Part shown: positions 973 to 31,586 of the stretch, piece by piece
How positions within the stretch are numbered: the stretch's first letter is position 1
Layout: each line of letters begins with the position of its first letter
Source: Schmidtea polychroa
Taxonomy: Eukaryota
Direction of reading: 5' to 3'
DNA: 64,000 nucleotides
NCBI GenBank assembly: GCA_044892525.1
Contig: CM097886.1
Coordinates: forward strand, 66,464,001 to 66,528,000
The notes under the pieces: generated by a model
Seen by the model: only the letters and a program-made list of their open reading frames with translations
Told to the model about the DNA's origin: nothing
Databases searched by the model: none
Translations under genes and position numbers: made by a program

Positions 973-3905
973 TGTTGGGCTAAAACGTGGAGTTTCGAAA
1001 ACTGGAGCGAATAGAAAAGTAATCCTTGAAAAATAAACGAAATAAAATAAAAATATAAAGTACCATCAAATTCTCGCTAATAAATCAAAAAGGAACAATA
1101 AAATATCAATAAGAGAATAAGAATAAGTAAAACAAACTAAATAAAACCCAATAAACCCCTTGAGATTTAGAAATAAAGCGATTTAGGACCCAGCAGATGA
1201 AATAGAATAAAATAAGTAAAAAAGTGACAACAAATAAAAGAGAAATTTAAGAAATAAATAAAAAATAAAACTATCTTTAAGTCTAATTAAAACAAAAAAT
1301 TATATTACAATAAAGTAGCAATAAATCCACAGGAAAAATAGGAGGAAAATAATAAAAATAAGAAAATAAATAAAATAATAATAGGAAATAAGTTAAGTCA
1401 TTAAAATCTAATATATTATAATAAAAAACATAAAAATAATAATAAATAGAAAAAATACAAACAAGTCGTGTCCTGATTGGACGAAAAATAATATATAAGG
1501 AACGGAAAATATCTGTAGATTACCACTTTTAAAAAATTTTTCTACAGGTAAACTTCGGTTCGTTATATACTACCACTTTTAAAAAATTTTTCTACAGACT
1601 TGACAGATTTCGGAACCTTTAATTATCCTACAGCGAACTAGTTCAGAGATTACCAAACCAAACCGAGGAAGAAATATATAGAGGCCAAACTACAAATCCA
1701 TTCGGGAAAAATTTTAAATTCAACCGATTTAACTTCAGTTTTCGAAACTCAAGGTATGCCTCGACAGTTGTTTTATTTATGGTTATTAGTTTAATTTAGT
1801 TAATCATTATAAATATAATAAAACAATTTCTTATAATAAATTTATTTAAATGAAAAGTTGCCTTTCTTCATGGTACCGACGACTGTACCATCTGAGAGCT
1901 CCCAGTATGATGTGGACGAGTTGGAATTGCACTGCAGTAGAGGACACCACCGTGGAAAGGTTGGTATGCATAAGAAATCACGAACATGCTGAAAAGAGAA
2001 TGTGATATTTGTAGAGAGTGATATTTGTCATATTAGAGATCCACCAAGGAGACGATGAGGTTTCGATCATGTAGGAGGAGCAACATCATACTCGGAGATC
2101 CAAATGATATGGTCGCCGAGTAAATTTTATTTATGCATTTTCTATCATTCAGTTTGATTATTATATTGTTGATTTGATTGAATGGAAAAGAGTTGATTGG
2201 TCCCTCATGACGGTGCAAGGAGGTGGCAGCAATGAATGCCTTCTTGGGTGTGTCGTGAGGGGTGAAGAAACTCAGTAGGTGGAACATCCAGTTAATAAAT
2301 GACCGTTCCTTCATCAAGCGCGATCGTCTGTAGAGCGTACCATCGGTTCATTTAGTTAAATCGAGATTTCCAGTAGATGTAGAGATGATTTGAATTCCGA
2401 ATGCAGACAATTCAGAGCGAGATAGGCAGTGACGTTCGTACAGATTCGATGATAATCCACATAGATAGGAGGAAAATTCTTTTCGTGATATTCAGCCGGT
2501 CAATCGACGTAGTTAGGAAAGAACGGTGTCGACCATAGATTGCAAGTAAATCCAACGATTTTTCGGTGACGCTCTGCGTTTGCAAGGTTCTGTCTGATTT
2601 GTGCCGTCATGATGTTAGCGGCTACATCCATTGTCGATGTACTCTTACGATTTGATTGTCGTCCTTGAGTCACCAATGCCAGTGATAAAGAATCTCTCGC
2701 TGACAGGGAAGTAAACATCTTGTAGTGAAATTATCAAAATTCTTACTTCGAGCCCGCAGACAGTAGTTGTCAACGATAACGAAATCAGTTGATTTGCATT
2801 AGCCTGCGTAGAGTTAGTCGACAGGAGATATCTGATAACGTCCTGGAGAAGGAGATAACATGTTAACTTTTCTGGGAAAATGTCAAATGAATAAGCTGAT
2901 AGTCATTGATCTGAATTAATATCGTAAAAGGAAATTAGATGATATTGTTGAGCTTACCCAATAATCTATGAAGTTGTCGCCCACTCAGATTGATTAATCT
3001 GATTTTTCGATTCATCTACGGCTGCTTATTTGAGGAATCTATTACGCAACCGCTAATATTCCGACTTGAGCATGCACATACACACGCACCACAGTCAAAT
3101 ATGCATAGGGCAGTGTAAAAGGAAATCAACGATTTTGGTGATGTAATAGCGGCATGATGGTATAAATTTCTCTAGAATAGCGAGATAATAGGATGAAGTA
3201 AGGGGATGGATTTCCCCTACACAACTCGATATACAATAATTTATCATAACAGCATAAACCATCATTCGCGGAGATAGCCAACATACAGTTACAGATACCA
3301 CCAGGAGTAATGACACACCTACACAGTCAATCATAATGCATAATCACAAGTAAACGTTTTCCATGACGACGATTTTCGACGCGTTATTGGAATTAATTAG
3401 ATGTAGATTAGAGCTGAATTTTCAACTGATTACACGATCAATTCCATAATTTTGAACGAGATAAAAACATAAATAATCTATTCCGTCGCCGTGAATTATT
3501 TCTCTGTAATGTTAGGCAGGCCTACCTCGACGAATTGCCATAATGATATCGGCAAAAATTCTTAATTAAAATATACTAATGGGAACAAGGTTGAAGGGGA
3601 TAAAGTAAAAGACGGGTTTTACCTGGGAATGGCCCATCCGAAATTAAACTCAAAGGGCGAGGTTTGTGTAGAAAGAATTTTTGGTATACGAATCCCCGTT
3701 TCCTTTTCTTAAATTACACGAATCAGGTGAAGAGATTTGAATGTTTGCAACTGAATGACTGCGTATAGAGATGGATGAAGAAGTGTGTGGGTCATCGTTG
3801 GGTGGTATGTTTGATCAAACTCCAAAACCATGCCCAAAAATTTGATTTTTCTTCACACTGATAGAGGTTTCTTCGAGTAAATATAAACAATGATTGATTT
3901 TCTAG

Positions 3906-4667
3906 ATGGCTACATCGTCCAACAACGCCAAAGAACTTCGCCCGTGTTTTTCTTGTGCGGACAAGAACGCGGATATCGCCCAACTCCACTTATATATCGG
4001 GGCTCTCAAAAAGAGAATTGATCTCTATGAAGGAACGTGGTTCTCCCCGCCACAAATGAAAGAGGAACGCAAGAAAATTCTCCGATTAGAGCATTGCAGG
4101 GACAGCCTGCTAGAGGAAAGCCGTTGTCAGCGGCTCACCATCAAAGCACAGTCAGAAGCCCTCCATAAGGTATATACGGAGGCAGAATTGGCTAAGCGGG
4201 TGCGAGAATTCCCCCTTCTGGATGGGACGAATGTCTTTCCTCGTCACCACCCGTCTCCTACATCTTCCGGCTCGCACTGCCAGGGGCACGGCTCACAACT
4301 GCCGCCCATTCCACCCCCGGTGTTGTCATGTCACCAGCCAAAGATAGGTGGACCTACTGATCCCATCGTAGCTCCAATCTTGGTAGCACCAATCGGTACC
4401 ACGAACACCGAAAAACCCCCGACTACCCGCAAACGGAAACGGCCAACTCGAGCCGAGAAGAACCAAAAACGCCGAGATGCGATGACAGCACTCGAGACGT
4501 CCTTATCGGCGGCGAAATCAAAAATCCAAGAGATAACGTCCTCCCATTCAATCCCCTCAAAGGAAGTCTTCCGCATTGTTCCAGCTGAGGGCATCAAATA
4601 CATTGTAGATAGCCGATTACCGGTCGACATAGATGAGATACTGGCCGATGGGGATAACTTTGTTTAA
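3906..4667 (+). CDS. LTR-encoded orphan protein (253 aa; N-terminal CxxC plus helical region, Pro-rich middle, basic NLS-like RKRKR)
   Basis: ATG-initiated ORF with GC-richer coding-like composition, immediately preceded by an acceptor-like TTTTCTAG and followed by AATAAA at 4798. Confidence 0.7.
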   Translation: MATSSNNAKELRPCFSCADKNADIAQLHLYIGALKKRIDLYEGTWFSPPQMKEERKKILRLEHCRDSLLEESRCQRLTIKAQSEALHKVYTEAELAKRVREFPLLDGTNVFPRHHPSPTSSGSHCQGHGSQLPPIPPPVLSCHQPKIGGPTDPIVAPILVAPIGTTNTEKPPTTRKRKRPTRAEKNQKRRDAMTALETSLSAAKSKIQEITSSHSIPSKEVFRIVPAEGIKYIVDSRLPVDIDEILADGDNFV

Positions 4668-4797
4668 TGTGATGTAAAATTGAGCTTGATTTCCTCTTCA
4701 TTGAGTTGTAAATTATCTCGTGAATGTTGCTAATGTTATATCTTTTTGACTGTTGTTGATCTGTTAGTAGTAATGATATTTTTATCGTTTCAGTGTC

Positions 4798-4803
4798 AAT
4801 AAA
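4798..4803 (+). terminator. Candidate LTR polyadenylation signal (copy at 31173-31178)
   Basis: AATAAA followed by a T/GT-rich tract about 400 bp before the LTR end, a plausible R/U5 position. The hexamer is common in this AT-rich DNA. Confidence 0.45.
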
Positions 4804-5221
4804 ATTTTCTGTTTGATTTTAGTTTTGTCGAGCTTTCATATATTTGTTTGTGCAATTAGAGTAGATGAGATAATGCTGCGGAATGAAGATAATTAAGGTT
4901 GAAGGTTGTTCCTTTGGACCAGGATCAGACCGAGTGACACGCATGTATATGGGTAAGTCCTTCTAAGGCACCGTGGGACCCGAACTGAGAAAGGGTTAGG
5001 AGTAGTCCTAAGGCAGGGGCTCACCTGCTAACCTTTTCCGACCCGTGTGAGCAGCACCAACATGGAACATCACCATGGGCTCATATGTGGGAATATGCAA
5101 TCAATCATTTGGAGTATGTGTAAAAAATGTATAACGGAGCCATGATGCTTGATAGGTGTGATGGAAAGGCATGTATAATTTTTTTTTTTTTTTTCTTCTC
5201 CACATACGCCAACATGATTTT

Positions 5222-7175: not shown

Positions 7176-8401
7176 GGCCTAAAGTAATAGTGAGATAGCA
7201 TTCAAGCTACAAGTTGATAACATTTAAATTACTAGTGAGATGGAATATTAAAGCTAGCTAGAAGCAAAGTGAGTTTGAAATATGGTATTTGAATTTAGAA
7301 AGGATTAAACGAGCTCGTGGGAGGTAATAATGAAATTTTTTTTTTTTGTGAGAAAGAGAAACTGAAAAGGAAAATGAATTAAAAAGATAATGAAAATAAA
7401 GAATAAGTGAGAATAAATGATGAGTAAAAGAGGAAGGTGATTAATTAATTAAAAGGGATCCCAGATAAGTAGACAAAGTTCTACAGAATTTTTTGGTTTA
7501 AACCGGTTAAACGAATTTTGTTTTGGTTACAGAGTAGAACCAAATAAGGGGAAACAGAGATGAAAGATTAAGTAAAATAGCGGAACCGCGTAAAAGGATT
7601 AAGAAAATAGGGGAGGTAATAAGCAGTAACTGACAACGACCTATCGATATTATAAATGCTAACTATAGATAATTTATACGACTATATAGATAATTGTTAC
7701 TACCCCAAATAGATAATTTAAAATCGACGAAAAATATGGGTTGATGGGTAATTATATTCCGCGAAGAAGTGTATGAGGGGAAATGAAGAGAAGTATAACA
7801 GAGGCCCTAAAACGGTGTCTGTGCTTGAATGTGGCAAAAAGGAATGATTGATTCGTGTAAGCAAAGGCAACACGATATCATATTTTCATTGTAGACATCA
7901 ATCCAACCAAGTCAATTCAGAACCAGCTCAAGAGGAATCCAGAGAATATACAAACAACCCAGGAAAAGCAATTCAGAACCCGCACAAAGGAAGACAATAT
8001 CAGAACCGAACTCGACCAATTCAGCAGACGCTAACCGTAGAAAATCCACGTGAAAAGACAGGAAAGAGTAAGAAAGAAACACGGATAAACCCAACCTTAG
8101 ATCTTCAAGTAAGCCAGGAGACGTATTATTTTCAGGAGACGAATTAGATCAACTCAAAAGAGGACGATCATTTAGGCAGCAGAGAGGAATATCACAAGGA
8201 GCAAAAAGACCCCACAAAACACCGATATACGATCAAGAAAACCCCACAGCCGGACATACGCCCAGTCGATCAAGAAGTAGAGAAAGTCTATCCGATATAA
8301 CAAACAACCTAACCGGGTCAACGGAAGAATTATCCGTCCATAGTTTAGCTACATCACTAGAAAATTTAAAAGAAATAATAGCATTTCAAGAACCAATCAA
8401 G

Positions 8402-11400
8402 ATGAATGTAGCAAAAACCGACGAATATAAAGAAAAATTTAGAGGCGAACCGTTCAACGGGAATGCGAACAAGTTGGCAACGTTCATAACCAATTTTGAA
8501 GTCTATATCGATGTGTGTGGATGGACATCCGAAGCAATTAGTAAACGAATGCCTCTGTTTTTGTGCGATAGCGCACTCGAAGTGTATCTGGAAGCAAAAG
8601 AAAGAAATACGAAATTAGACAATTGGGAAAACATCAAAACATTTTTGAGAAAAACATTCGGAGCCAGCAAACCGATAAATCAAGCGTTAGGTGAACTGGC
8701 AAGTAGAAAACAAAGAGCAAACGAGTCAATTACGTTATACGCAAGTGAATTACGAAGATTGGCAAAGAAGGCCATGAACGGAAACTTGCCGGAGGAAAAC
8801 CTAATTGGGTACTTCATAGAAGGACTACGCCGAGAAGAGGTAAGGGCCTCGGTGGGATGTCAAATGTGTAAAACACTAGAGGAAGCTATAGATTGGGCCA
8901 CAAGATGCGAACTACACCTCCCGGCACAAATGAATGTCATGCAAGAGGAAGGAAGAATCGCAACAGCAGCGGTGAAAACGGAAAATGGAGATAACAATAA
9001 TCATGAACCAAAGATGAATCAGTTTATACCAGGTGCGCATCAAATTTTCAAACCACCACAAGGACGATCAAACGGGAATAACAGTGAACGCAACAACTCG
9101 AACAATGGGAACAACTTTAATAATCGACGAAATATGAACGATAACAAACAATGCCGAACATGCGGTAAACCAGGACATTGGGATAGAGATTGTTACCGAA
9201 ACGCAAATTGCAATAGGTGTGGACGACGAGGACACACGGAAAATATATGCCAATCGAGAGGATGTTTTAACTGCGGGCAACCAGGTCATATCTCAAGAGA
9301 CTGTCGAGAAAGGAGCCAACAGCAACGACCACCACAGCGAAATAATAACTATGCACCAAATCCGCAACGACAAAGTAATCCTAGTGAGGGAAAGCAAATG
9401 AATGTGATGCAAGAAATTTCACAAATGAAGCAGATGATGCAACAAATGATGAGACCGAGACAAGAGCAAGTACCACAACCAACCCAGAATATACGCATGA
9501 TGAGAAGCACCGAGAATCTTAACAATTATGAAGTGCAACAACATGCACAAGAATGGCAAAGACTACAAGCTGAAGAAGAAAGGATAAAAAGAGAGCGAAT
9601 TCAGCAGCGACAAGAACAACCACTACGAATAAATATGATGAGGATGGTAAAGGAGATAAAGGAGCAATATTGTTACAATTACGGTAAAAATCCAAGAGTT
9701 GTACCTATGAGCGAACCAGAGAAACCGAAAGAAACAATTCCAGCAGCAAAAAAGGAAAATTCAACAACATCGCTAAAAGGAAATCAGAGAATTCAGAAAA
9801 TATTTTGGAAAAAGATAAAAGATAAAATCGAAAGAGAAAATGAGCAAACAAAAACAGAAGCAGAAGCAGAAAATAACGAAAATGGAAAACAGATCAATCA
9901 TCTAAAGCATAATATGATACGAGAATTAGACTCAGAGGAGCTAACGATACTCGAGAACAAAAAGTTAAAGAAGGTACCAAGAATGAGAAATTTACGAATT
10001 AATATGATGAGGACAACAAAGAAGGTGTTGTCAACAGATGACGATGAGGATTATGTGAGTAGCCTTGGTGGAGAAATGTTACAGTTAAATGAAAATATCG
10101 ACCAACTAAGAGAAAAGATCGGAGCAGATGAGGATGAAAGAGAAAGCGACGTGACAAGCGAAAGCGAAGACGAGAATATCGAAATGAAATTGAGAAAAGA
10201 AAGAGAAGAAGCGATAAAACAAGTAAAGGAAATACTTCCAGTGGTAGTAAGAAACCAGGAGTTCATCGACCTTATACCATATAAACGCTTCTTACAAAAG
10301 ATAATGAAACTAGAAAGAAACGAAAAAGATCTAATACCAAACGAGGAAAAAGCGATAATAAAGAAGTATATGGAAAAAATGAAACAAGCGGAGACAACAC
10401 GGTATGTAATAAAAATCGGAACGAGTAAAGGGCTCGAGAGAATATGGATAAAAAGCACAGTCACAGACGACCTTTTCGATTGGATAAGAGAACATTTGGG
10501 CAGCTCGAGAAAGAAAGAGTATTTATATCAATATCAAGGAGAACAAATTAAGCCAGACATGCACCTAATAGATGCATTGATCTGGCCAGGAGAAACTCAA
10601 ATATTGAAATTGTATAAAGAAAGGCAACCAGCAAATATTCATGAATGGGCTAAAGACGCCAAGGCCGAGTATGACTTTAACCTCAAGCTGAAGCTGGACC
10701 AAATAAAACAATGCACCTTGCGACGAAATCTAGATAAATTAATCAAACAAATTCAAGAACAAGTCGAAGATAACTGGGATTTACTCATAGCAAGACGAAC
10801 TCCAGACATGCATGAACTAATGAGCCGATTACGAGATACAGAATTGCTCAGGATGAGCGATTGGAGAACCATAAATTTGATCCACAAATATGGAAGGTTG
10901 AAAGAAACGCAACCGCAGAAATTAGAAATAACCATATGGTTACCAAACGAGGAGAAACGACGAATAAAGATGAGTAATCAGAGTACGGTGGATGACTTAG
11001 TAACCAAGATAAACCAAGAGATAACGGAAAAAGTACGAAGCGAGAGTAGCGACGGGATGATAGATGACGTAGTCATGATGTACGATAAAATAATATTACG
11101 GGCCGAAGACGACACCTCGCTAAGCGAAATGGGAATGTGGGATAATCATCAAATCATCAGAATATTGCCCATGGACGAATTCCGAACAAGAGATATAACA
11201 TACCAGAAAGAAATACGAGACAGGATGAAAACGCTATATCAAAAATCAGTAGAGATAATTGAAATTCATCAACAGTGGCTAAAAGAAAAAGAGCTTCAAG
11301 GAAAAATAAAGAAACTAAGTGTTAGATCCTGCAGACGAACCCCATGGGAAAGGACGTGGAATGCGGAAAACAAAGAATGGGAAATCAGGAAAGGGATTTT

Positions 11401-12007
11401 CGTGGAAACAGACATTGGTGAGATAGAAAGCGAATCAGAAGAAGAGGAAGATGAACCTCCAAAATACGAAGAGGACGAAATAGAATCGACATCGGACGAC
11501 GAAAGCGAAACGGATGTTACATCAGAAAGTGAAACGGAAACCAGACATATTCATGCGATGAGAAAGAAAGAACGCGAATATGCCGATATGGACAGCGAAG
11601 AAGCGATGGAAGCTCGAGAACGAGAAGAGAAGGAAAGATATAAACAATTAGGTGATATCTTAGCAACGGGAACAAAAAATCAAAAACGTCAAGTAATAGC
11701 ATTGGCTAACATCATCCTAAAGACATCAGAGAATATCCACAATCTAAGAGAAATGGCGAAAGCGATTGAGGAATACAGACAATATAACGAATGGTACCCA
11801 GAACAGCTAGAACAAATTATTAGGAAATGGAGAAACCAAGAATGGGCACAAGATACCCAGGAAAGGTATCGTATCCGAGTCAAGTATCCCGACAAAAGCA
11901 TTGAGGATACAGAAGTACATCCAACAACAAAGATCAGAGAGTTAAAAAAAGAAATTAGCATACGAAACTCCATTTCACCTACAACTATTCGGAAAATCGT
12001 TGGATGA
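8402..12007 (+). CDS. gag: Gag (Ty3-type capsid, three CCHC zinc knuckles) with a long extension containing ubiquitin-like domains; N-terminal part of a probable single polyprotein
   Basis: Capsid motifs (FNGNANKLATFITNFE..., KQRANESITLYASELRRL, YFIEGL); CX2CX4HX4C knuckles at 9152-9304; UBL-like segments at ~10400-10620, ~10919-11170 and 11864 onward. Confidence 0.93.
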   Translation: MNVAKTDEYKEKFRGEPFNGNANKLATFITNFEVYIDVCGWTSEAISKRMPLFLCDSALEVYLEAKERNTKLDNWENIKTFLRKTFGASKPINQALGELASRKQRANESITLYASELRRLAKKAMNGNLPEENLIGYFIEGLRREEVRASVGCQMCKTLEEAIDWATRCELHLPAQMNVMQEEGRIATAAVKTENGDNNNHEPKMNQFIPGAHQIFKPPQGRSNGNNSERNNSNNGNNFNNRRNMNDNKQCRTCGKPGHWDRDCYRNANCNRCGRRGHTENICQSRGCFNCGQPGHISRDCRERSQQQRPPQRNNNYAPNPQRQSNPSEGKQMNVMQEISQMKQMMQQMMRPRQEQVPQPTQNIRMMRSTENLNNYEVQQHAQEWQRLQAEEERIKRERIQQRQEQPLRINMMRMVKEIKEQYCYNYGKNPRVVPMSEPEKPKETIPAAKKENSTTSLKGNQRIQKIFWKKIKDKIERENEQTKTEAEAENNENGKQINHLKHNMIRELDSEELTILENKKLKKVPRMRNLRINMMRTTKKVLSTDDDEDYVSSLGGEMLQLNENIDQLREKIGADEDERESDVTSESEDENIEMKLRKEREEAIKQVKEILPVVVRNQEFIDLIPYKRFLQKIMKLERNEKDLIPNEEKAIIKKYMEKMKQAETTRYVIKIGTSKGLERIWIKSTVTDDLFDWIREHLGSSRKKEYLYQYQGEQIKPDMHLIDALIWPGETQILKLYKERQPANIHEWAKDAKAEYDFNLKLKLDQIKQCTLRRNLDKLIKQIQEQVEDNWDLLIARRTPDMHELMSRLRDTELLRMSDWRTINLIHKYGRLKETQPQKLEITIWLPNEEKRRIKMSNQSTVDDLVTKINQEITEKVRSESSDGMIDDVVMMYDKIILRAEDDTSLSEMGMWDNHQIIRILPMDEFRTRDITYQKEIRDRMKTLYQKSVEIIEIHQQWLKEKELQGKIKKLSVRSCRRTPWERTWNAENKEWEIRKGIFVETDIGEIESESEEEEDEPPKYEEDEIESTSDDESETDVTSESETETRHIHAMRKKEREYADMDSEEAMEAREREEKERYKQLGDILATGTKNQKRQVIALANIILKTSENIHNLREMAKAIEEYRQYNEWYPEQLEQIIRKWRNQEWAQDTQERYRIRVKYPDKSIEDTEVHPTTKIRELKKEISIRNSISPTTIRKIVG

Positions 12008-15000
12008 TAATGCAGATGTCGGAATAACACCCATGAGATTGGGGGAGATCAATGTATTGACAATGGCAGAAACATTGGGAAAACCGATTAAAAGGAAGAG
12101 CAAATCCAGTAAACCTACGAAAGGTAGCTTGAGTACACCAAGCCCTAACAAAGTGGCAAGTAAAACGAATGAAACCGAGGAAATCGAGGAAATTATATTG
12201 GAAGACAGCGATGAAGGAGCTGGAGAAAGATCACCAATTCTGGTAAGATGGCCGACAGGAGCCGAAATATGGACAACAAGCCAACCGTCAACTAGCTATC
12301 AGCAGCCAAATAAGCTGAGTATCGAGGAGATTATCGATAATACAACAGAAACCGAAACCGACGAACAATTCCAACGACAGAAAGGACCAACGAAAGCAAC
12401 ACCAGAAGGTCAAACGGACAAAATAATAGACGAATGGAACGAATGGCTGAGAAACAACGATAGCTCATTGCCAAGAACGGATAACGAGAGAAACCCGAAT
12501 TATGAAAATACAAGGGAAGCCGGAACAATGATGGAAAAACGGGCAAAAGGGAGACCCAAGAAGCAAGGAGAAAAACCGGAATTTAAAACTAGAGAACAAC
12601 TGAAACAAGAACAAGGACAAGTCAGATTAGAGAAACTGGATAAAATAGTGTGGGATCTAAAAGAGGCCCAGCCAACTATCGAAAGAGGCGAAAAATGGAT
12701 ACGAGAGCTAGTAAAAGATATGCTAATAATAACGAACCCACAATTGCGACGGTTATGGCAACGAAAAGTAGCAAGCGTAGACGCCAGACAACTATGGAAT
12801 ACAATATCCGGAATAATTCCGAAATTAATCAAAGAGAAGACAAAAACCACTAAAACCGATTGGGAAGAGACAAGAAGAGTAATTGAACAATTAACTTTAA
12901 ACGCAAACGACGACGAACATCATTTAGTAGTATTAACGTATCTAATGTACAATTTGATGGGATTAGCAGCGAGGAAAATACCTAACAAACAATTCGCAAA
13001 TCATGTAGAAATGACCGTTACAATCATCGAAAATACAATCGAACCACATATTATCCGCGCCGGTGGGTGGAAAAGACTCATACAAGCGCCACGAAAAAAC
13101 GAGCAAGAGAGATCAATGCAAATTCGGTTGAAGAAATTACTAAACAAGCTAGAATGGGAATTGCCATTGAAAGACCCAGCCAGCAGAAAAGCGTCGATTA
13201 ATTCACTAATGATGACCATGATGATATGGATGCTCTGCACCAGTGGAGCCGCGGGATTTACTATTTACGACTGTGACAATTCGATAATAGGAGAAAGATA
13301 CTCCCTGAGAGATATAGAGGAATGTAGACAGGCGTCTCCGAATAAATTAGATATAGTAAAGAAGAAAGTCTCCTATCACGTATACCAAGAATCAGATTTC
13401 ATTAGAACGCAAGCTAGAGAATGCGTAGTATCGAAGAAAGTGTTGGCATATTACTGTGGACAATACTCATATTCAACCCTCATATTACCTGGATTAGATA
13501 AAGAAATAGTACCTATACAACGGGAAGACTGTAAAGAGCTTTTTAGAACCGGAGCGATGAGAATCAGGGATGGAGTAACAATACACGGACAAAGCGGAAT
13601 GATCAAGACAGAAAGTATCTATGTCGCCGGACGAGTAAAATCAACGGATGGATCATGTAACGGAGGCACATATACGATCAGAGGAGAGGTGATATCAGGA
13701 GTAGTAGTAATTGAGTCCTACACAGTGGAGTTGAAGGAATACGAAGCACAATTCGACGCAAACAACTATCAAATGAAAACCAACCCAGCATGCAGAGCTA
13801 CGGAAAACGTGTGTAGAACGGGGATTTCGACTATAATATATGAAGCTAACACCCAAAAATGCCGACTCCAATTGTTAAAAAGTGCTCTATTCAATGAAGT
13901 AAAAGGAGAAATTTACGAAAACGAGGATGACGATGAAGAGAATGGAAACGTAAGGATGCGAAATGGGAAACCAGTTCCGCCATCCCCCAAAGAAAAGAGA
14001 CTCACAACCCAAAAAACACCAACGGCATTAATTACCGATGATCCAGACATCGGCATGAGATTCATTAGAGAAAAAGAGACCACCAAATGTGACAGTATAG
14101 TATACCGGACGAACTACGCAGGTATCTACATGTCAAGGCAAGTAATAGACCGAGCAGTGGGAAAGGTAGCAACGGAGGACGTAAAATTGTACCTGTATGC
14201 CAATAATAAGATGGACTTCTTGTTCCACCGAGGACAAACGACAATGCAAAAAGTGTATTACGATCTTATACAAAATGACTGTTCATTGAATAAAGAGATA
14301 CTAAAAACAAAATTAGCCATCGCAATAACACACCCAGATAACACAATGCCATCACTCCCGTTACCGGATGGACATTTTGGTAGAATGGTGGGAGAGGTAA
14401 TGTATACATATGCATGTACCAAGACATTTGCGCGACTGCCAAGAAAGCCCACAATTCCACCAGGGAAATGCGCAAACGAGTTGGAAATTAGTTACAAAGG
14501 GCGAAACAGATTCGTTCAACCCGTCACTCGAATCATGAACCCAATTGGATTTTATCCGAACACCTTTAACTGTTCAAATGCATACGGACCGTTATATGAA
14601 AAACCCGATGGGAAATGGATAATGTTACCAGTAAAAACCGAAGTACAAGAGCCTAAAAAGTTTGGACTAATAGAACTCGCAACAGAACAAGATTTCAAAC
14701 CAATTGATGTGTCAAAAGCAGGTATGTACTCACCAGAGGATTTAGAAACGGCACGATTAAACGTATTATTCCCAGCAAGACGGGAATCCATTCTATCGAA
14801 TATGGTTACCATAACTGGGGGAACGAATTTCCAGTCAGGCCCCAATTACGAACTATTATTGTCACCTGATCATTTTCAACAAGCCACGTCAAACATGATG
14901 AAAGCAATGTGGGGAAGATTTCTAGTGTTCGGTCAAATGATGGCAGGAATATTGGGAATCATTCTTATTATCCAGATAGTTAGAGTAATATTGACTCAAA

Positions 15001-18000
15001 TGTTAGCGTGTTTTGATATCTATAAGAGAGAAAAGAAGGTAAATTGGAAATTGATAGTAGGCTTTCTACCATTTTTGGCAAAAACAATGGTGTTGCACGG
15101 TCATTCTAAAGACATACATAGAATAAAACGATTGATCAAAATACTGACAAAAATAAAAGGAACTGACGAGGAAGTCGGTAGACGATTTCGGAAAACAATG
15201 TATGATGAAGCAACAAGGACGCAACTGAAAAAGAACAAACCAAAATTCTTAGACAGATTTAGGAATCGATCAAACAGCAGCGATAGTGATGATGACGACA
15301 ACGGGAATGACAAATACCCATATCCAAGTAGAAACCCGAATGAAAAGCCAATAGAAACAGCACCATATTGGGAGAAAGAAAAAACAAATACCTGGATAGC
15401 CAACGGAAGTTATATACCACCAGATATCGTTGGACAACAAACAGCTTTGACCATGACACAAAATATGTATCCACAGTTACCAAGTCAACCAGGGATGAAC
15501 TATATGCCGACCCGAAGAACGAAAAGTGTAGACCAAGCGGACGACGTAAGAACGATAGCAGTGATGAGTTCACCAGGAGGTGCGGCAGTAACAGTCATGA
15601 TCCAAATCAACGGGAAAGAGACAAGCGCCATGATAGATACCGGAGCAAACGTATCAGCAATAGCAATAAACCAAATACCCAGTAAATGTTGGAAAGATAT
15701 CGAACAAACAACTATCCATATTATTGCATGCAGTAAAGAAACCGTCGACGTAGTAGGAAGATGGTGGACTACGTTACGATATCAGGATAACGAAATTGAA
15801 ACGTATCTAGCGGTGATACCCAAACTGAGTGAACCATGTATAATCGGAACGGATTTAATGCCGGAATTGTTTAAGGAAGTAGTAATCGATTTAACAACAA
15901 TGTGTCTAAAAGACAAAATGGGTAGAATATGCAAGATGAACGCAATAATTAGATGTCCGGAGAAAATAATTGTACCCGCAAAATCACAGATGATATGTCA
16001 AATAAAAGTGGATGCAGGAATGGAAGGAGAAGTCATTTTTGAGCCAAGCAAATCATTCGAAAAACGACGAGAATTACCATTAGCAAGAGAAATAATAACA
16101 ATAAATGAAGACGGGGAAATACCAATTAACATCACAAATTTCGAGGAAGAAGACAAGATCATATATGAAAATGAAAGATTGGGTAGATTGACACCCATGA
16201 TAGACATCGAATTACCAAAAATCATCAACGAAACAACGAAAGCTGACGAATTATGGATAATTGACAGCACCTTGCTAACGGAAAAAGAAAAGGAAAGACT
16301 TCAACAATTATTGATAGAATATAAAGATATATTCGCAATTTCGGATTTGGATTTGGGAGCATGCGATGTTACATTACACGCAATACCATTAATAGACGAA
16401 ACTCCAATCGCACTACGTCCATACAAACTAGCAGAGAAGCAAAAAGAGATAGCCGAAGCTGAAGTACAAAAAATGCTAGATGCACAAGTGATCGAACCAA
16501 GTTGTTCGCCATGGCAATTTCCAGTAGTCATGGTGAAGAAAAAAGACGGTACTCAGAGATTCTGTATCGATTATCGGAAATTAAATGCAGTAACAAAAAG
16601 AGACACATACCCGTTACCAGACATCAATGAGATGTTACTTATGTTACAGGGGGCCGCATATTTTACATCTTTAGATCTGAAAAGTGGATATTGGCAGATC
16701 AAAGTCAAGGAGGAAGACAAAGAGAAAACAGCATTCACATTGGGCCGAGATCTATACCAATTCAGGAAAATGCCGTTCGGACTGACCAATGCCCCAGCAT
16801 CATTCCAGAGATGTATGAATTTTGTCACACACGGGATCAAGCAGTGTATGGTATATATTGATGATTTATTAATATATTCAGCAACTTTCGAACAACATTT
16901 GGAAGATATCAGAAACGTGTTCGTTCGATTACGACAATGGAAACTGAAACTTAAACCATCCAAATGTGATTGGGCAAAAGAAAAGGTTACGTTCTTAGGA
17001 CACATAGTGTCAGCAAAAGGCAAAGAACCAGATCCAAGAAACATAGAAAAAATAAAAACATGTCCAGCACCAAAAACTGTCACCCAAGTTCAAGAATTTC
17101 TCGGATTATGCGGATATTATCGAAAATTCATCAAAAACTATGCAGGTATTGCGAAACCAATACAGGAATTAGTGAAAAAGGATATTTCATTTATTTGGAG
17201 TGCAGAACAACAAAAAGCGTTTGAGACATTGCGCGATAAATTAATCGAAGCCCCAATACTAGTACATCCTGATTTCAAGAAACCGTTCTTATTAGCAACA
17301 GATGCAAGTGGATATGCAGCCGGAGCAATATTGGGACAACTCGACGAAGAAGGAAAAGAAAGAGTGATTGGATACTACAGTAGAACGTTTAAAAAGCACG
17401 AGAAAAACTATTCCGTAACCGAGAGAGAAGCGTTAGCAATCATACAAGCAATTAAACATTTTCGATATTTGTTATGGGGACACGAAATATGTATCACCAC
17501 GGATCATCAACCATTAGTATGGCTTGGTCAACACAAAGAAGCTTCAAGTAGATTGATGCGATGGGCAATGCAGTTACAAGAATATTCACCGTTCATAAAA
17601 TTCAAAGCGGGAAGAGCGAATGCCAATGCGGATTGTATGTCCAGATTTATCTTTCCAGATTTAGTAGATCACGAAATGCAACGAATATGTTTGATTGTAG
17701 CAGAAGATTTAGATTTTTGCCAATTACGGAAAGACCAACAAGAGGATACAGAGTTGAAGCAAATCATTGAATATGTGAAAACAGGGAAAGCAGAGGTATA
17801 TGAGAAAGATCAAAAATTGAAGGAGCATATGGATAAACATCGACATCGATATATTATCGAGAAAGATTGGTTATTGATAATGGATGGCGAAAAAAGACTG
17901 ATGTGCATTCCCGAGAATAGACGTAAAGATCTACTAACACAATACCATGACGGAAGACTCGGAGGACATATGTCATCTAAAAAGACGTTGGCACGAATGA

Positions 18001-21000
18001 AACAAAAATATTTTTGGCCTACATTGACCGAGGATGTAACGGAATGGGTGAAAAATTGCATAACTTGCGCAACCAGAAAAAACACGGGAACAAAATGGAA
18101 GGCACCATTAAAGCCAATGCCAGTGCCAGCAGAACCAATGACAATGATATCAATGGACGTAGTCGGTCCACTACCAGAATCAGATAGAGGAAATATATAT
18201 ATATTGGTAATCACAGATTATTTGACAAAATTCCCCGAAGCATTCGCAATGGCAGATCAGAAAGCAAGAACAATCGCAAAAATATTAGTAGAGGAAATAT
18301 GTTGTCGATATGGAACGCCGAAACAAATACTGACGGATCAAGGAACGAATTTCATGAGCGAAATAATGAGCGAAGTCACCAACTACTTCAAGATCGCAAA
18401 ATTAAGAACATCACCGTACCATCCACAAACTAATGGTATGACAGAAAGATTCAATGGAACACTGATTCAAATGTTATCAAATTATGTCGATCGTCATCAA
18501 CGAGACTGGGATGAATATATAAAATTATGTCTAATGGCTTACAGAATGTCGATTCACGCGTCCACAAAGATGAGTCCGTTCAAGTTGATGTACGGCAGAG
18601 AATGCAATATGCCAATGGATTTAGAATATCAGCCACCGATATCACAATACATGGAAATAGACGATTATGTAACCAAGTTCAAGGAAAGAATGCAGGAAAT
18701 CTGGGAAACCGCAGGATTGAATATAAAATTTTATCAAGAAAGTTACAAAGAGTTACATGATAGAAAGAAAAACGTCAAACAGCATACGTTTCAAACAGGC
18801 GATTGGGTGATGATTGAAACACCAGAATTAATTCCAGGAACCACCAAAAAATTACAACGAAACGGTAAAGGGCCGTATGAGATTCTATTCGTTGGAGAAA
18901 CTAATGTAAGAGTACGATTAGTGAACAACCCTTTTACAAGACCAATATACGTAAATGTTGCACGATGTAAGCCAATTCCGAAAACCGCCACCAGTCAGCC
19001 AGAAGGACGTACACTAACGACAAGATCACAAACGTATAGAATAAACATGTTACAGCAAATAAACGAACCAACAGGTAATCGATTAGGGTTACAACCATCA
19101 GAAGCCGAGGAAATCATAAAGGAAGTAAAAGTTAAAATGCCCGGATGGGCAGAAGACAGATTAGATTTTGAGATATTGGGAGGTCTGCTAACAATGATCG
19201 AAAATTATGCAAACCGAGAAAGAACACACCCATTGCTCAGGGTAGTTAAAAGTCAATGGCCTATATTATTCACGATCACAGACCATTACGGAGACACACC
19301 CCTGCACAAGCTTTTAAAGGTGGGTAGTAACGAACAGATATTAGAAACAATTGAAGCATTTCGCGATTGTAACATTTCGACAGATCAAGAAAACAACCAA
19401 GGTTACACTCCACTAATGATAGCAGCCAATCGGGATAAAGCTAAAGATATTATCATCGCATTACTTGAAACTGGGTCAAAGATAACCACACAAGACCACA
19501 ACCAGAAAAATGCACTACATCATGCAATCGAAGGGAAAAGTACGGAAGCCTTCATAATCTTAGTAGATCTATTATCATATGAGGATAATAGAGAGATAGG
19601 AAACATGTATGACGGGCTATTAACTGCAATCAAAGAGAAATTAATAACAATTACTGGAATACTAATTGCATGGAGGAACCCGATCAAAAACGATTATATG
19701 GTAGATATAAACGAAACATTTACCAAAGGAGAAAATACCTTGATGAGAGAAGCGATGAGAGGACATCACCTATTCGAAATTCCAAATCAACTACTACAAC
19801 GTGGCATAAAGTTCTCAAATCACAAAGACGAACAACTAATCAGAAAACGAATTATCAACTTCGAAAAAGCTATATCTCAATTTACCGATAAAGTACAAGT
19901 AAAATTTTGGGAAACCGTGAGTGTATTATATATGATGGAAAATATGAACAACATTCGAGAAACTTACCTAAGCATTATTCAAGTTCTAACGGCAGAGGAA
20001 CGCATTAACAATTCGAACAAGAAAAAGATAAAAAGGAAGAAAGTAAAAGCAAGAGAGTCTGAGGAACAAGTCGATCAACCAATAACCGATATAGCAACAA
20101 CAAGTAAACCAAAGACAATAAACTCCGACCAAGAGATAGTAGTACGTAAGGCTAAAGAAGTATTCTTTGAAGAAATGCAAGATCTATCCGATGAAGCGAT
20201 ACTAGCAAAAATAACCAAAACAGTACACACCTACGCAAGAGATCAGACCACAAATCTAGACATAGGAAAAATAAAAACATTTATACCACTAGCATTCACC
20301 TTACCAACAAAAGACTCAAGAACACCATTACAACAAGCCATTTTAGCAGCAAAAGAAAACAGAGCAATAACCATCATAAGAATCCTTAGAGACTTCGGAG
20401 AAGAATCTAATGCAAAAAATGAACAAGGAGAAACAGCAATGATGTATGCAGCCATAACAAATATACACCCGAAAACATTACATATACTACATCGATCGGG
20501 ATCAAGACTTGACGAAATATCAAACGAAGGAAATTCTGCCATGGATTGGGCAACAATACAACCAAACTTGGAAATGATTAGATTCATTTGTAAAAATGCT
20601 ACAAGAACTGAGGTAGAAAATATCTGTAAAAACACGTCACAGTTCCAATGGAACACGATACGGATGAACTTAGAAGCCATGAAGTTGCTGCTAACATGGA
20701 GAATACCACAAAGCAATAAATATGCAATAAATATAAATGAGTTCTACGAAAACGGAGAAAATGCTATGGTTAAAAATACACTAACAAAAGGAGGAACTCC
20801 GAAAATCATAATGATCGTATTAAACAGGGAAGATCTCAAATTCACGCAGAATCTAAACGAACAAAAGCGAATCGGGAAACATCGTCGGATACAATTAAGA
20901 GAATTAGTGAAAGAATGGAATAGAAAGAGACATGTAGCAACAGGCAGAAAGGAGTTCGAACTCGAAGCAAAATTAGCAAGAAACAGAGTGCTAACGGCAT

Positions 21001-22283
21001 ACCGCAGATTGTTGAATGATATAAATGTCGAGGACGACATTTTAAACGATAGCGGGGGAGATAAAGACGATAAAGACGATAAAGACGACGATAATAATGA
21101 AAAAGGTCGAAACGGGAATAAAGAGAAAGAGAAATCAGAGGAGAATAATCAAGAAAATAACGACGCGAGTAGGAAAAAAGAGGAAAATAACCCGAGAAAC
21201 CGAATGAAGCAAGAAGAAAAGACGAATAGTGGAAAACAGAGGGTATGCCTACTTTTTACCAACAAAGAAATGGAGACAAATATGATGATAATGATACTCG
21301 TACTAACAATGGTGGAAATGATAACAGCCCAGGGAGGAATGAGAACGATAAAAGAAGCCAAAGAAACGGAAAATAAGGACAACAAAGAGGAAGAACTAAA
21401 ACAAGAAAAGAAAAAACAAGTACAAGAGCAGCAATGGGATCTAAAAGAAGAATGGGATTTAAAAGAAAGGTGTATATTAGGAAGATGTATGTCTAGAGCT
21501 TATCAGAGACTAGTGTTAAAAAATGAAGATGCAGAACCAATAACGGAAGTAAGAATACAAGAAGCATACCGAAATCGAGAAGGAAAGAGAATAACGAAAG
21601 TCAAAGGGAAGGAGGTACACCTGGGAAAAGGAGGTGAGGTAGTGATAACGCAACTCCAGCCAAGAAAAGAACACAAAGTCTGCATCGCAAGATTAAGACC
21701 GGGTGAAGACTGTCTACAATATGTAATACAGCAACAACCTCCAAAAGAATACACAATATGCATCTGGAGAAAAGATACAGCGAGAGAATGTCGACGATAC
21801 CCTGGGAAAAGAGGGAAGAAAAGAAAAATCGATGATGAAAAAGATGAGCAAGGAAAACGCAAGAAAAACAGTGAGAAACATCAAGACAATTATGTATCCG
21901 AGGAGGAGATGGAGAAAATACAAAAAATGGCAAAGGAAGGTATGAACGAGGAAATAGCAAGAATACGAGGAATGATGAAAGGAAATGGCAAAGACGGTAA
22001 TCTAAAAAGCACAGAAGCAATATCAACAATAACGAGCAAGGAAAAAGCGGAAATTATAAGCATAAAACAGATGATGTGGATCAGCGGCATAATAATAACA
22101 GGGGCCTTTTTAATCATAACGGGGGGGACAATAAAAATAATCAAAGATAGACGGCATCACGGAGAACTAGAAATGGCCAGAATAAGAAATTTTCAACATC
22201 GTGTAAAACGACCAAGTAATATCAAGCAGGAACAGTGGGTGGAGGCCTGGAATGCTCAGCGCCCTCCAAGCTCACGTATATAG
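11946..22283 (+). CDS. pol: Env-Pol polyprotein (frame open from 11946; ORF track starts at TTG 12000): UBL end, AT-hook, Bcl-2-like, gB-like Env, PR, RT, RNaseH, IN, ankyrin repeats, FN3-like membrane protein
   Basis: Uninterrupted 3,400+ codon frame containing IDTGAN (15636), YIDD (16854), ATDASG...EREALA...TDHQPL, HxxxxxH...CITC, D,D35E ([19 protein letters not shown]) and a GPY motif. Confidence 0.95.
   Translation, partial: [3445 protein letters not shown]
12625..13085 (+). other. Bcl-2-like helical domain within the polyprotein
   Basis: BH2-like [14 protein letters not shown] (GGW at 13062-13070), preceded by a hydrophobic BH1-position helix [12 protein letters not shown] that lacks the NWGR signature. 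Confidence 0.6.
13209..15100 (+). other. env: Envelope glycoprotein of the chuvirus/Jingchuvirales G (herpesvirus gB-like class III fusogen) family, with internal signal peptide and C-terminal TM
   Basis: Signal [22 protein letters not shown], then Cys-rich ectodomain with chuvirus-G-like motifs (YYCG, [59 protein letters not shown]), then [22 protein letters not shown] TM. Confidence 0.85.
15567..15930 (+). other. Retropepsin aspartic protease domain
   Basis: [21 protein letters not shown] ... CIIGTDLM. Confidence 0.93.
16380..17650 (+). other. Reverse transcriptase + RNase H
   Basis: [71 protein letters not shown]. Confidence 0.97.
17690..19020 (+). other. Integrase (HHCC zinc domain, DDE core, GPY/F module)
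   Basis: [10 protein letters not shown]...CITC; [31 protein letters not shown]. Confidence 0.96.
19278..20790 (+). other. Two ankyrin-repeat clusters downstream of integrase (internal duplication)
   Basis: [24 protein letters not shown] (cluster 1); [25 protein letters not shown] (cluster 2). Each cluster is followed by a similar LxxWRxPxxNxYxxxINExxxxGEN motif (19662 and 20685). Confidence 0.85.
21282..22283 (+). other. C-terminal type-I membrane protein module: signal peptide, FN3-like Cys-containing ectodomain, TM, basic tail
   Basis: [17 protein letters not shown] signal; [16 protein letters not shown] and [11 protein letters not shown] resemble the FN3 L-x-P-x-T-x-Y-x-V strand; TM [21 protein letters not shown]. 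Confidence 0.55.
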
Positions 22284-22811: not shown

Positions 22812-22900
22812 ATATAACCTAAAATAGCAATGTAAATAAATGTAAATAAAAATACGAAACTGTACCAGTAACGAATATATGTATATATATAATTATAGAA

Positions 22901-27347: not shown

Positions 27348-30300
27348 TGTTGGGCTAAAACGTGGAGTTTCGAAAACTGGAGCGAATAGAAAAGTAATCC
27401 TTGAAAAATAAACGAAATAAAATAAAAATATAAAGTACCATCAAATTCTCGCTAATAAATCAAAAAGGAACAATAAAATATCAATAAGAGAATAAGAATA
27501 AGTAAAACAAACTAAATAAAACCCAATAAACCCCTTGAGATTTAGAAATAAAGCGATTTAGGACCCAGCAGATGAAATAGAATAAAATAAGTAAAAAAGT
27601 GACAACAAATAAAAGAGAAATTTAAGAAATAAATAAAAAATAAAACTATCTTTAAGTCTAATTAAAACAAAAAATTATATTACAATAAAGTAGCAATAAA
27701 TCCACAGGAAAAATAGGAGGAAAATAATAAAAATAAGAAAATAAATAAAATAATAATAGGAAATAAGTTAAGTCATTAAAATCTAATATATTATAATAAA
27801 AAACATAAAAATAATAATAAATAGAAAAAATACAAACAAGTCGTGTCCTGATTGGACGAAAAATAATATATAAGGAACGGAAAATATCTGTAGATTACCA
27901 CTTTTAAAAAATTTTTCTACAGGTAAACTTCGGTTCGTTATATACTACCACTTTTAAAAAATTTTTCTACAGACTTGACAGATTTCGGAACCTTTAATTA
28001 TCCTACAGCGAACTAGTTCAGAGATTACCAAACCAAACCGAGGAAGAAATATATAGAGGCCAAACTACAAATCCATTCGGGAAAAATTTTAAATTCAACC
28101 GATTTAACTTCAGTTTTCGAAACTCAAGGTATGCCTCGACAGTTGTTTTATTTATGGTTATTAGTTTAATTTAGTTAATCATTATAAATATAATAAAACA
28201 ATTTCTTATAATAAATTTATTTAAATGAAAAGTTGCCTTTCTTCATGGTACCGACGACTGTACCATCTGAGAGCTCCCAGTATGATGTGGACGAGTTGGA
28301 ATTGCACTGCAGTAGAGGACACCACCGTGGAAAGGTTGGTATGCATAAGAAATCACGAACATGCTGAAAAGAGAATGTGATATTTGTAGAGAGTGATATT
28401 TGTCATATTAGAGATCCACCAAGGAGACGATGAGGTTTCGATCATGTAGGAGGAGCAACATCATACTCGGAGATCCAAATGATATGGTCGCCGAGTAAAT
28501 TTTATTTATGCATTTTCTATCATTCAGTTTGATTATTATATTGTTGATTTGATTGAATGGAAAAGAGTTGATTGGTCCCTCATGACGGTGCAAGGAGGTG
28601 GCAGCAATGAATGCCTTCTTGGGTGTGTCGTGAGGGGTGAAGAAACTCAGTAGGTGGAACATCCAGTTAATAAATGACCGTTCCTTCATCAAGCGCGATC
28701 GTCTGTAGAGCGTACCATCGGTTCATTTAGTTAAATCGAGATTTCCAGTAGATGTAGAGATGATTTGAATTCCGAATGCAGACAATTCAGAGCGAGATAG
28801 GCAGTGACGTTCGTACAGATTCGATGATAATCCACATAGATAGGAGGAAAATTCTTTTCGTGATATTCAGCCGGTCAATCGACGTAGTTAGGAAAGAACG
28901 GTGTCGACCATAGATTGCAAGTAAATCCAACGATTTTTCGGTGACGCTCTGCGTTTGCAAGGTTCTGTCTGATTTGTGCCGTCATGATGTTAGCGGCTAC
29001 ATCCATTGTCGATGTACTCTTACGATTTGATTGTCGTCCTTGAGTCACCAATGCCAGTGATAAAGAATCTCTCGCTGACAGGGAAGTAAACATCTTGTAG
29101 TGAAATTATCAAAATTCTTACTTCGAGCCCGCAGACAGTAGTTGTCAACGATAACGAAATCAGTTGATTTGCATTAGCCTGCGTAGAGTTAGTCGACAGG
29201 AGATATCTGATAACGTCCTGGAGAAGGAGATAACATGTTAACTTTTCTGGGAAAATGTCAAATGAATAAGCTGATAGTCATTGATCTGAATTAATATCGT
29301 AAAAGGAAATTAGATGATATTGTTGAGCTTACCCAATAATCTATGAAGTTGTCGCCCACTCAGATTGATTAATCTGATTTTTCGATTCATCTACGGCTGC
29401 TTATTTGAGGAATCTATTACGCAACCGCTAATATTCCGACTTGAGCATGCACATACACACGCACCACAGTCAAATATGCATAGGGCAGTGTAAAAGGAAA
29501 TCAACGATTTTGGTGATGTAATAGCGGCATGATGGTATAAATTTCTCTAGAATAGCGAGATAATAGGATGAAGTAAGGGGATGGATTTCCCCTACACAAC
29601 TCGATATACAATAATTTATCATAACAGCATAAACCATCATTCGCGGAGATAGCCAACATACAGTTACAGATACCACCAGGAGTAATGACACACCTACACA
29701 GTCAATCATAATGCATAATCACAAGTAAACGTTTTCCATGACGACGATTTTCGACGCGTTATTGGAATTAATTAGATGTAGATTAGAGCTGAATTTTCAA
29801 CTGATTACACGATCAATTCCATAATTTTGAACGAGATAAAAACATAAATAATCTATTCCGTCGCCGTGAATTATTTCTCTGTAATGTTAGGCAGGCCTAC
29901 CTCGACGAATTGCCATAATGATATCGGCAAAAATTCTTAATTAAAATATACTAATGGGAACAAGGTTGAAGGGGATAAAGTAAAAGACGGGTTTTACCTG
30001 GGAATGGCCCATCCGAAATTAAACTCAAAGGGCGAGGTTTGTGTAGAAAGAATTTTTGGTATACGAATCCCCGTTTCCTTTTCTTAAATTACACGAATCA
30101 GGTGAAGAGATTTGAATGTTTGCAACTGAATGACTGCGTATAGAGATGGATGAAGAAGTGTGTGGGTCATCGTTGGGTGGTATGTTTGATCAAACTCCAA
30201 AACCATGCCCAAAAATTTGATTTTTCTTCACACTGATAGAGGTTTCTTCGAGTAAATATAAACAATGATTGATTTTCTAGATGGCTACATCGTCCAACAA

Positions 30301-31586
30301 CGCCAAAGAACTTCGCCCGTGTTTTTCTTGTGCGGACAAGAACGCGGATATCGCCCAACTCCACTTATATATCGGGGCTCTCAAAAAGAGAATTGATCTC
30401 TATGAAGGAACGTGGTTCTCCCCGCCACAAATGAAAGAGGAACGCAAGAAAATTCTCCGATTAGAGCATTGCAGGGACAGCCTGCTAGAGGAAAGCCGTT
30501 GTCAGCGGCTCACCATCAAAGCACAGTCAGAAGCCCTCCATAAGGTATATACGGAGGCAGAATTGGCTAAGCGGGTGCGAGAATTCCCCCTTCTGGATGG
30601 GACGAATGTCTTTCCTCGTCACCACCCGTCTCCTACATCTTCCGGCTCGCACTGCCAGGGGCACGGCTCACAACTGCCGCCCATTCCACCCCCGGTGTTG
30701 TCATGTCACCAGCCAAAGATAGGTGGACCTACTGATCCCATCGTAGCTCCAATCTTGGTAGCACCAATCGGTACCACGAACACCGAAAAACCCCCGACTA
30801 CCCGCAAACGGAAACGGCCAACTCGAGCCGAGAAGAACCAAAAACGCCGAGATGCGATGACAGCACTCGAGACGTCCTTATCGGCGGCGAAATCAAAAAT
30901 CCAAGAGATAACGTCCTCCCATTCAATCCCCTCAAAGGAAGTCTTCCGCATTGTTCCAGCTGAGGGCATCAAATACATTGTAGATAGCCGATTACCGGTC
31001 GACATAGATGAGATACTGGCCGATGGGGATAACTTTGTTTAATGTGATGTAAAATTGAGCTTGATTTCCTCTTCATTGAGTTGTAAATTATCTCGTGAAT
31101 GTTGCTAATGTTATATCTTTTTGACTGTTGTTGATCTGTTAGTAGTAATGATATTTTTATCGTTTCAGTGTCAATAAAATTTTCTGTTTGATTTTAGTTT
31201 TGTCGAGCTTTCATATATTTGTTTGTGCAATTAGAGTAGATGAGATAATGCTGCGGAATGAAGATAATTAAGGTTGAAGGTTGTTCCTTTGGACCAGGAT
31301 CAGACCGAGTGACACGCATGTATATGGGTAAGTCCTTCTAAGGCACCGTGGGACCCGAACTGAGAAAGGGTTAGGAGTAGTCCTAAGGCAGGGGCTCACC
31401 TGCTAACCTTTTCCGACCCGTGTGAGCAGCACCAACATGGAACATCACCATGGGCTCATATGTGGGAATATGCAATCAATCATTTGGAGTATGTGTAGAA
31501 AATGTATAACGGAGCCATGATGCTTGATAGGTGTGATGGAAAGGCATGTATAATTTTTTTTTTTTTCTTCTCCACATACGCCAACA
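27348..31586 (+). repeat. 3' LTR (4,239 bp)
   Basis: Copy of 973-5214. The only differences I saw by eye are A>G at 5123/31498 and T16 versus T13 near the end. Confidence 0.97.
30281..31042 (+). CDS. Second copy of the LTR-encoded orphan protein (3' LTR)
   Basis: Identical translation to 3906-4667. Confidence 0.7.
   Translation: MATSSNNAKELRPCFSCADKNADIAQLHLYIGALKKRIDLYEGTWFSPPQMKEERKKILRLEHCRDSLLEESRCQRLTIKAQSEALHKVYTEAELAKRVREFPLLDGTNVFPRHHPSPTSSGSHCQGHGSQLPPIPPPVLSCHQPKIGGPTDPIVAPILVAPIGTTNTEKPPTTRKRKRPTRAEKNQKRRDAMTALETSLSAAKSKIQEITSSHSIPSKEVFRIVPAEGIKYIVDSRLPVDIDEILADGDNFV

Follow-up and report, generated by a model that had tools for sequence, protein, structure and literature searches.

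The element and its polyprotein

The 64,000-nucleotide stretch of the Schmidtea polychroa genome analysed here (the window; contig CM097886.1, positions 66,464,001 to 66,528,000) carries a young 30.6-kb LTR element of the Ty3/gypsy group and the Burro/GYPSM1 type, located at 973-31586 and flanked by a 4-bp target duplication, CAGT. Burro/GYPSM1 elements of planarians exceed 30 kb and contain one ORF of ~4,800-4,900 aa, encoding Gag with 3 CCHC knuckles, ubiquitin-like and Bcl-2-like domains, an in-frame Env before the protease (PR), RT-RH-IN and ankyrin repeats, with TRAF/MATH domains as further cargo (PMC6431247). The window element shares this layout (PMC6431247) and was assigned by it. Along the element, Pfam searches recovered, in order, Gag, CCHC knuckles, a Monjiviricetes/gB-type fusion protein, protease, RT, RNase H, integrase and ankyrin repeats. 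Env, located in frame between the Bcl-2-like domain and PR, matched PF24664 with an E value of 3e-72. The Bcl-2 match was weak in the window element (E 0.053) and reached 9e-5 in relatives, and the UBL profile matched ubiquitin and ISG15. For the conserved PR-RT spacer, named dUTPase-like in PMC6431247, Pfam and PDB searches gave no dUTPase match. A TRAF-like ORF recognized by Pfam lies separately downstream of the polyprotein (22850-24289) in the window family, whereas in family M (see below) the corresponding domain is inside the polyprotein, as in Burro1. Hydrophobic stretches correspond to the Env anchor (14919-15014), the second signal (21270-21332) and the last anchor (22071-22133); the Env signal (~13203-13256), which falls below the hydropathy cut-off, was read from the sequence. 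PR is 94-100% identical across the best 150 genome matches, and a PDB search with it returned matches to HIV-1 PR only, all weak.

In the window copy the polyprotein is broken into two frames, both of which are carried as one by sister copies (Table 1). At least ~59 single frames of 4,705-4,817 aa were counted by eye among the best 150 protease matches in the genome. Thus, the single product of ~4,600 aa assumed in a preliminary description of this locus is correct for the family but not for the window copy. When the genome was searched with the Pfam profiles Ank_2 and Rad60-SLD, no frame was long enough for a further whole polyprotein. In a search for homologous proteins started from protein P0002 (positions 430-1500), 0 of 6033 candidates were retained.

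The element has additional ORFs, namely, a RING-finger ORF in the 5' leader (5656-6153), a 253-aa ORF within each LTR (3906-4667 and 30281-31042) and three ORFs before the 3' LTR (24505-27116) without a convincing Pfam match. The 5' LTR is immediately followed by a primer-binding-site-like stretch (5215-5245), which we take to be tRNA-Pro-like, and the leader holds 80-bp tandem repeats (6737-7174). The window also includes an exon of a host flavin amine oxidase gene (47455-48618; Pfam E 5e-25). Elsewhere in the genome, many near-identical short Bcl-2-like frames of 152-179 aa are scattered outside long ORFs, possibly as accessory ORFs of other repeats.

Table 1. Features of the element and candidate processing sites (window coordinates; ranks are those of the three-way score)
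Feature	Position	Strand	Details
5' LTR	973..5214	+	TG...CA; 4.2 kb; 99.9% identical to 3' LTR
3' LTR	27348..31586	+	
Polyprotein frame 1, window copy	8072..12007	+	CA, NC with 3 CCHC knuckles, spacers, UBL1, UBL2, start of UBL3; first ATG 8402
Polyprotein frame 2, window copy	11946..22283	+	End of UBL3, Bcl-2-like, Env, PR, PR-RT spacer, RT, RH, IN, two ankyrin units, second membrane protein
Retropepsin protease	15594..15869	+	Intact DTG motif; Pfam RVP E 1.5e-7
Q-MNVM, CA/NC	8930..8941	+	Supported; 9/9 copies; Q-VAAM in M
Q-MNVM, after NC	9398..9409	+	Supported; 9/9 copies; Q-INLM in M, flank identity 24%
N-IRMM	9491..9502	+	Extra candidate, absent from earlier list; 9/9 copies; R-INMM in M; rank 15/4709
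R-INMM	9629..9640	+	Supported, held out; 9/9 copies; rank 1/4709
R-INMM, start of UBL1-UBL2 block	9998..10009	+	Supported, held out; 7/8 copies; K-INML in M, flank identity 25%; rank 7
H-IHAM, between UBL1-2 and UBL3-Bcl-2-like blocks	11549..11560	+	Supported, held out; 9/9 copies; R-ICMM in M; rank 20
S-INSL, just before Env signal	13197..13208	+	Supported, held out; 9/9 copies; G-MNAI in M; rank 16
T-IAVM, PR N-terminus	15555..15566	+	Supported; IAVM/IAAM in 10/10 copies; T-IAVL in M
R-ICKM, PR C-terminus	15927..15938	+	Absent from earlier list; ICKM in 10/10 copies; Q-ICTM in M; rank 4
R-ICLI, RH/IN	17685..17696	+	Supported; ICLI in 4/10, ICLM in 6/10 copies; identical in M
R-INML, IN/ankyrin	19041..19052	+	Supported; [IM]NM[LM] in 10/10 copies; R-IFML in M

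Enrichment and conservation of a junction motif

Most junctions of the polyprotein carry the motif [IMV]-[N/C/A/H]-x-[M/L/I]. All 13 four-residue words listed in the preliminary description are present, in frame, at the coordinates given there. The accompanying statement that the motif occurs at almost every domain border is, however, too strong: no conserved site was found at UBL1/UBL2, UBL3/Bcl-2-like, dUTPase-like/RT, RT/RH or Ank1/Ank2.

For comparison, we used ten sister copies from the same genome (81-99% DNA identity; families A and A') and four other families of that genome, B, C, D and M, the last of which is 35-64% identical and has a 4,791-aa frame that includes a MATH domain. The union pattern, which is post hoc because it was drawn from the same sites, occurs 18 times in the window element versus 6.3 +/- 2.5 times in shuffled sequences (p ~0.001), and local 50-residue shuffles show an equal excess. 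Out of sample, family M contains 13 union matches versus 6.3 expected (p 0.011), and the pattern derived from five textbook borders yields 8 versus 1.9 in the same family (p 0.002). Families B (5 versus 5.4) and D (6 versus 4.8) show no union-pattern enrichment and no excess under any of five patterns. Thus, the enrichment over shuffled sequence that had been set as a check is seen in the window element and in M, but not in B and D. Moreover, a loose Ty1-site pattern fixed beforehand gave a non-significant 36 versus 29 in the window element (p 0.10), so that the signal depends on the narrower pattern.

A profile was trained on the five textbook borders, CA/NC, NC end, PR start, RH/IN and IN end. 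Among 4611 positions, it ranked the held-out sites at 9998 and 9629 third and fourth, with scores above those of three of the five training sites. We further computed a three-way score, the minimum over A, A' and M, at 4709 positions; the top 20 included 11 linker sites, namely, the five training sites and those at 9629, 15927, 9998, 9491, 13197 and 11549. The other 9 fall in the Env, PR, RT, IN or Bcl-2 cores, and a motif alone thus does not define a site. Of the 10 listed sites that were counted, 7 retain the strict pattern in family M, within flanks that are at most 45% identical and against an expectation of ~2.5% per site (binomial p 7e-10, a crude figure, A and M sharing ancestry and not being independent trials; 12048, at the alignment edge, is outside the count). 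The words lost in M under the strict pattern are those at 8402, 19041 (IFML) and 21243, and none of the 6 non-border motif matches is kept. Furthermore, sister copies differ silently or within residue class (MNVM/MNIM, ICLI/ICLM, INML/MNMM), which indicates that the constraint acts on the protein, and the flanks of the repeated sites match at only 11-22 of 42-45 bases, so that these sites are not DNA duplications.

Families B and D were analysed together with 11 distant polyproteins from public assemblies. In this set, the top tenth contains 10-11 of the 39 border windows defined beforehand, compared to 3.9 expected (p 0.004 and 0.001). The 39 windows are what is left of 57 (18 of them in the top tenth) once M, near-duplicate families, post-PR and double-counted windows are set aside; post-NC and post-PR windows in the distant relatives are non-significant when taken alone. 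Conservation in related elements, on which the preliminary description had made its case depend, is thus evident in M, but most of the distant border windows (28-29 of 39) miss the top tenth, implying that specificity drifts between lineages or that the sites differ. At homologous borders, families B and C carry, as judged by eye, an aromatic residue (S-FAII, I-FAAI, N-YSMM, S-YALM), and this aromatic P2 possibly reflects a lineage shift in protease specificity. Several distant polyproteins with Env before PR (P0006, P0153, P0003, P0004 and P0017) hold two to six or more retropepsin-like domains, and several of these domains are preceded by the motif, e.g. R-INYM, F-IGML and S-IGML in P0006; P0153 also contains ankyrin repeats and C2H2 fingers.

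Could such words arise by chance, and be picked out by eye, in an A-rich frame with many Asn, Met and Ile residues? The pattern was defined post hoc, 6 further matches lie away from borders, four of the listed sites fail (see below) and the loose pattern is non-significant, all of which is in line with this explanation. Nevertheless, the excess persists with local 50-residue shuffles and the held-out and cross-family tests were passed; the cross-family and three-way tests largely refute chance, which we consider very improbable. As far as sequence comparison goes, the motif is real and selected, beyond chance.

Individual sites and their likeness to Ty1 protease sites

Nine of the 13 listed sites hold (8930, 9398, 9629, 9998, 11549, 13197, 15555, 17685 and 19041) and four do not (8402, 12048, 15936 and 21243); the corrected map of putative sites is the earlier list minus these four plus two, 9491 and 15927. 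The supported sites lie outside Pfam domains. The AlphaFold model of the 1,021-aa region from the UBLs to Bcl-2 has a pLDDT of 35, and the accessibility of the linkers is accordingly presumed from composition and domain borders. In a PDB search, IN aligned with Ty3 and foamy virus IN but short of their N-termini, so that this search cannot place the RH/IN cut.

Among the rejected words, E-INVL (12048..12059, +; rank 127), previously placed after UBL3, lies in the last beta-strand of this domain, at strand E74-79 of a ubiquitin-fold model built from a sister copy (pLDDT 67, matching ubiquitin over 73 columns); the word is TNVL in 6/10 copies and VNRL in M. K-MNAI at 15936, proposed as the post-PR site, is conserved in family A, whereas M has MRTE at this position (rank 501), and the conserved register is at 15927, three codons upstream. 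R-VCLL before the second signal (21243..21254, +) is VCLP in 5/10, VCLL in 4/10 and VCPL in 1/10 copies, with no aligned match in M; T-NMM at 21276 (TNM[MI] in 9/10 copies, also with no aligned match in M) is a weak alternative. Two further words were also discarded, E-LWII at 16251 as a spacer/RT site (rank 1142) and T-INLI at 10871 as a UBL1/UBL2 site (lost in M).

K-MNVA (8402..8413, +; rank 29) coincides with the first ATG of the frame, and its Met sits one codon earlier in 6/8 copies; it could be a site only if translation covered the 110 codons upstream. The frame is open over these 110 codons (8072-8401), with a dN/dS of 0.30 versus A' and 0.01-0.08 elsewhere. In families A, B and D, the first ATG is preceded by the word PNLRSS, YNLRSQ or YNLRNR, which resembles YNLRPR, given as the chromatin-binding word of foamy virus Gag in the relevant passage of PMC12125541. 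The open stretch and the upstream word hint at non-AUG or spliced initiation. Similar words, YPLRS and YGLRS, follow IN in families B and D. Contigs from 4 sequencing runs had no GT..AG among the 15 of 37 joints listed, a count with no bearing on splicing or expression.

The supported words resemble the sites of the Ty1 protease. The latter, given in PMC6952103 as TARAH/NVSTS, VPTIN/NVHTS and IHLIA/AVKAV (slashes mark the cuts), have hydrophobic P2/P2' and hydrophilic P1/P1' residues, and foamy virus sites are said, in a passage of PMC3185560, to resemble those of yeast retrotransposons. By analogy, the Burro words fit the Ty1 register as I-N/M-M, I-H/A-M and I-A/V-M. In this register, which is itself taken from Ty1, P2 and P2' are hydrophobic (I/M/V and M/L/I) at 11/11 supported sites and P1 is small or polar (N, C, A or H) at 10/11, the exception being R at 9491; in M, one site (19041) has F at P1, outside the second-position class of the motif. 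In contrast to Ty1, with 3 sites, the ~11 predicted Burro sites reach cargo beyond Gag and Pol, show a preference for Met at P1'/P2' and tolerate Cys at P1. Type 1 and type 2 sites of orthoretroviruses, as outlined in PMC3185560, have aromatic-Pro or hydrophobic-hydrophobic pairs at P1-P1', whereas the Burro words include no aromatic-Pro pair and, in the Ty1 register, have N/C/A/H at P1.

Taken together, the enrichment, the held-out ranking, the conservation in a distant family and the likeness to Ty1 sites argue that the element cuts its polyprotein at the motif with its own aspartic protease, a reading that we regard as probable. Thus, the assignment to the retropepsin made in the preliminary description is well supported, but the sites appear to be of the Ty1/foamy kind rather than of the generic hydrophobic retroviral kind.

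The live rival to this reading is that PR cuts the textbook Gag/Pol borders only. The words in the cargo would then be conserved for other reasons, as short motifs that form beta-strands or mediate binding (words like SUMO-interacting motifs, or the border of a signal h-region). Indeed, 12048 is a true beta-strand look-alike, 13197 adjoins a hydrophobic signal, and 9/20 of the top conserved matches are in folded cores. However, the words at 9629 and 9998 are nearly letter-identical to the textbook sites and outscore three of the five used for training, the cargo sites keep the pattern in flanks that are only 24-41% identical, and an Asn at the second position would be more at home in a protease subsite than in a buried strand. 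We therefore consider restriction to Gag/Pol borders unlikely, while still weighing it above the other alternatives. Another such alternative is that the Met-rich words are internal translation starts, reached by leaky scanning or from spliced or sub-genomic RNAs. Most sites do contain Met once or twice, and the first ATG does lie at 8402. Yet the codons for the Ile and Asn preceding Met vary silently, so that the amino acids are preserved, ICLI has no Met, MNAI, IAVL and ICLI of family M have none at the third and fourth positions, and internal starts would leave C-termini, such as that of NC, unfreed. This explanation thus has very little probability.

Predicted processing of the polyprotein

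If the protease of the element does recognize these sites, the cut is predicted to follow the second residue, which is small or polar (I-N/M-M), as at Ty1 sites. The one-frame polyprotein would thread through the ER membrane, signal peptidase would free Env and the second membrane protein, and PR would cut cytosolic linkers at ~11 sites. The first predicted products are CA (178 aa), NC (156 aa) and spacers of 31, 46 and 123 aa; the predicted cargo products are a UBL1-UBL2 block (517 aa), a UBL3-Bcl-2-like block (~550 aa) and an Ank1-Ank2 block; and the remainder would comprise a signal stub, Env, PR (124 aa), spacer-RT-RH (586 aa), IN (452 aa) and the membrane protein. With 11 PR cuts and two signal-peptidase cuts, ~14 pieces are expected, including three small spacers and one signal stub. 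The ~14 proteins proposed earlier are thus a plausible number if the two predicted signal-peptidase cuts are counted, although the route to it differs.

The idea that each captured domain had been fitted with its own cleavage sites does not fit this map, in which the cargo would be released as multi-domain blocks rather than domain by domain. Family M illustrates the point: its inserted MATH domain is directly followed by R-ICMM, the counterpart of 11549, and has no motif in front, so that a captured domain need not gain a site of its own.

The cut at 13197 would part the Bcl-2-like block from the Env signal helix, which, if left uncut, could act as a tail anchor. In flaviviruses, the capsid anchor is processed in a comparable manner, with cytosolic cleavage next to an internal signal by the viral protease and lumenal cleavage by signal peptidase; the virus and its protease are unrelated to Burro and the likeness is one of analogy only. 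Extending this analogy, we tentatively suggest that the protease may be a timed switch on host-control cargo. As long as 13197 is uncut, the Env signal helix would hold the UBL3-Bcl-2-like block at the ER in the manner of a tail-anchored Bcl-2 protein, and cutting would release the UBL3-Bcl-2-like, UBL1-2 and ankyrin blocks as soluble effectors of apoptosis and ubiquitin signalling. Such a switch, if true, would amount to flavivirus-like two-step processing inside a retrotransposon.

Processing by gypsy-type proteases has precedents. In the relevant passages on PEG10 and Ty3, such a protease frees CA, spacer and NC, and the freed PEG10 NC acts on the host cell (PMC10076021, PMC4974528); unlike Burro, PEG10 and Ty3, as presented there, lack an in-frame Env as well as captured cargo of the UBL, Bcl-2 or ankyrin kind. 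Errantiviruses with the GAG-ENV-POL order and an HSV/gB-type Env are reported from Platyhelminthes, Nematoda and Bryozoa in part of PMC13524379 and share with the window element a gB-type Env between gag and pol; the three passages on cleavage found in that paper concern furin sites in Env only. The Burro section of PMC6431247 does not discuss processing sites, and the passages of PMC11410931 and PMC8532177 that mention Burro do not mention its processing; in smedwi-2(RNAi) planarians, BURRO1 RNA is reported to be de-repressed (PMC8532177). Full-text literature searches found no description of Burro processing sites, which supplements, e.g. that of Grohme 2018, might annotate. The element and the site type are known, and this is neither a new class of element nor a new class of protease, whereas the processing map is apparently unpublished.

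The interference of Burro elements with apoptosis and ubiquitination has been called 'worthy of experimental confirmation' (PMC6431247). The conserved site map indicates which protein pieces are expected to exist, where the borders of expression constructs should be placed and which exact peptides proteomics should find. More generally, it suggests that a retrotransposon protease likely serves captured cargo, as the polyprotein proteases of RNA viruses do.
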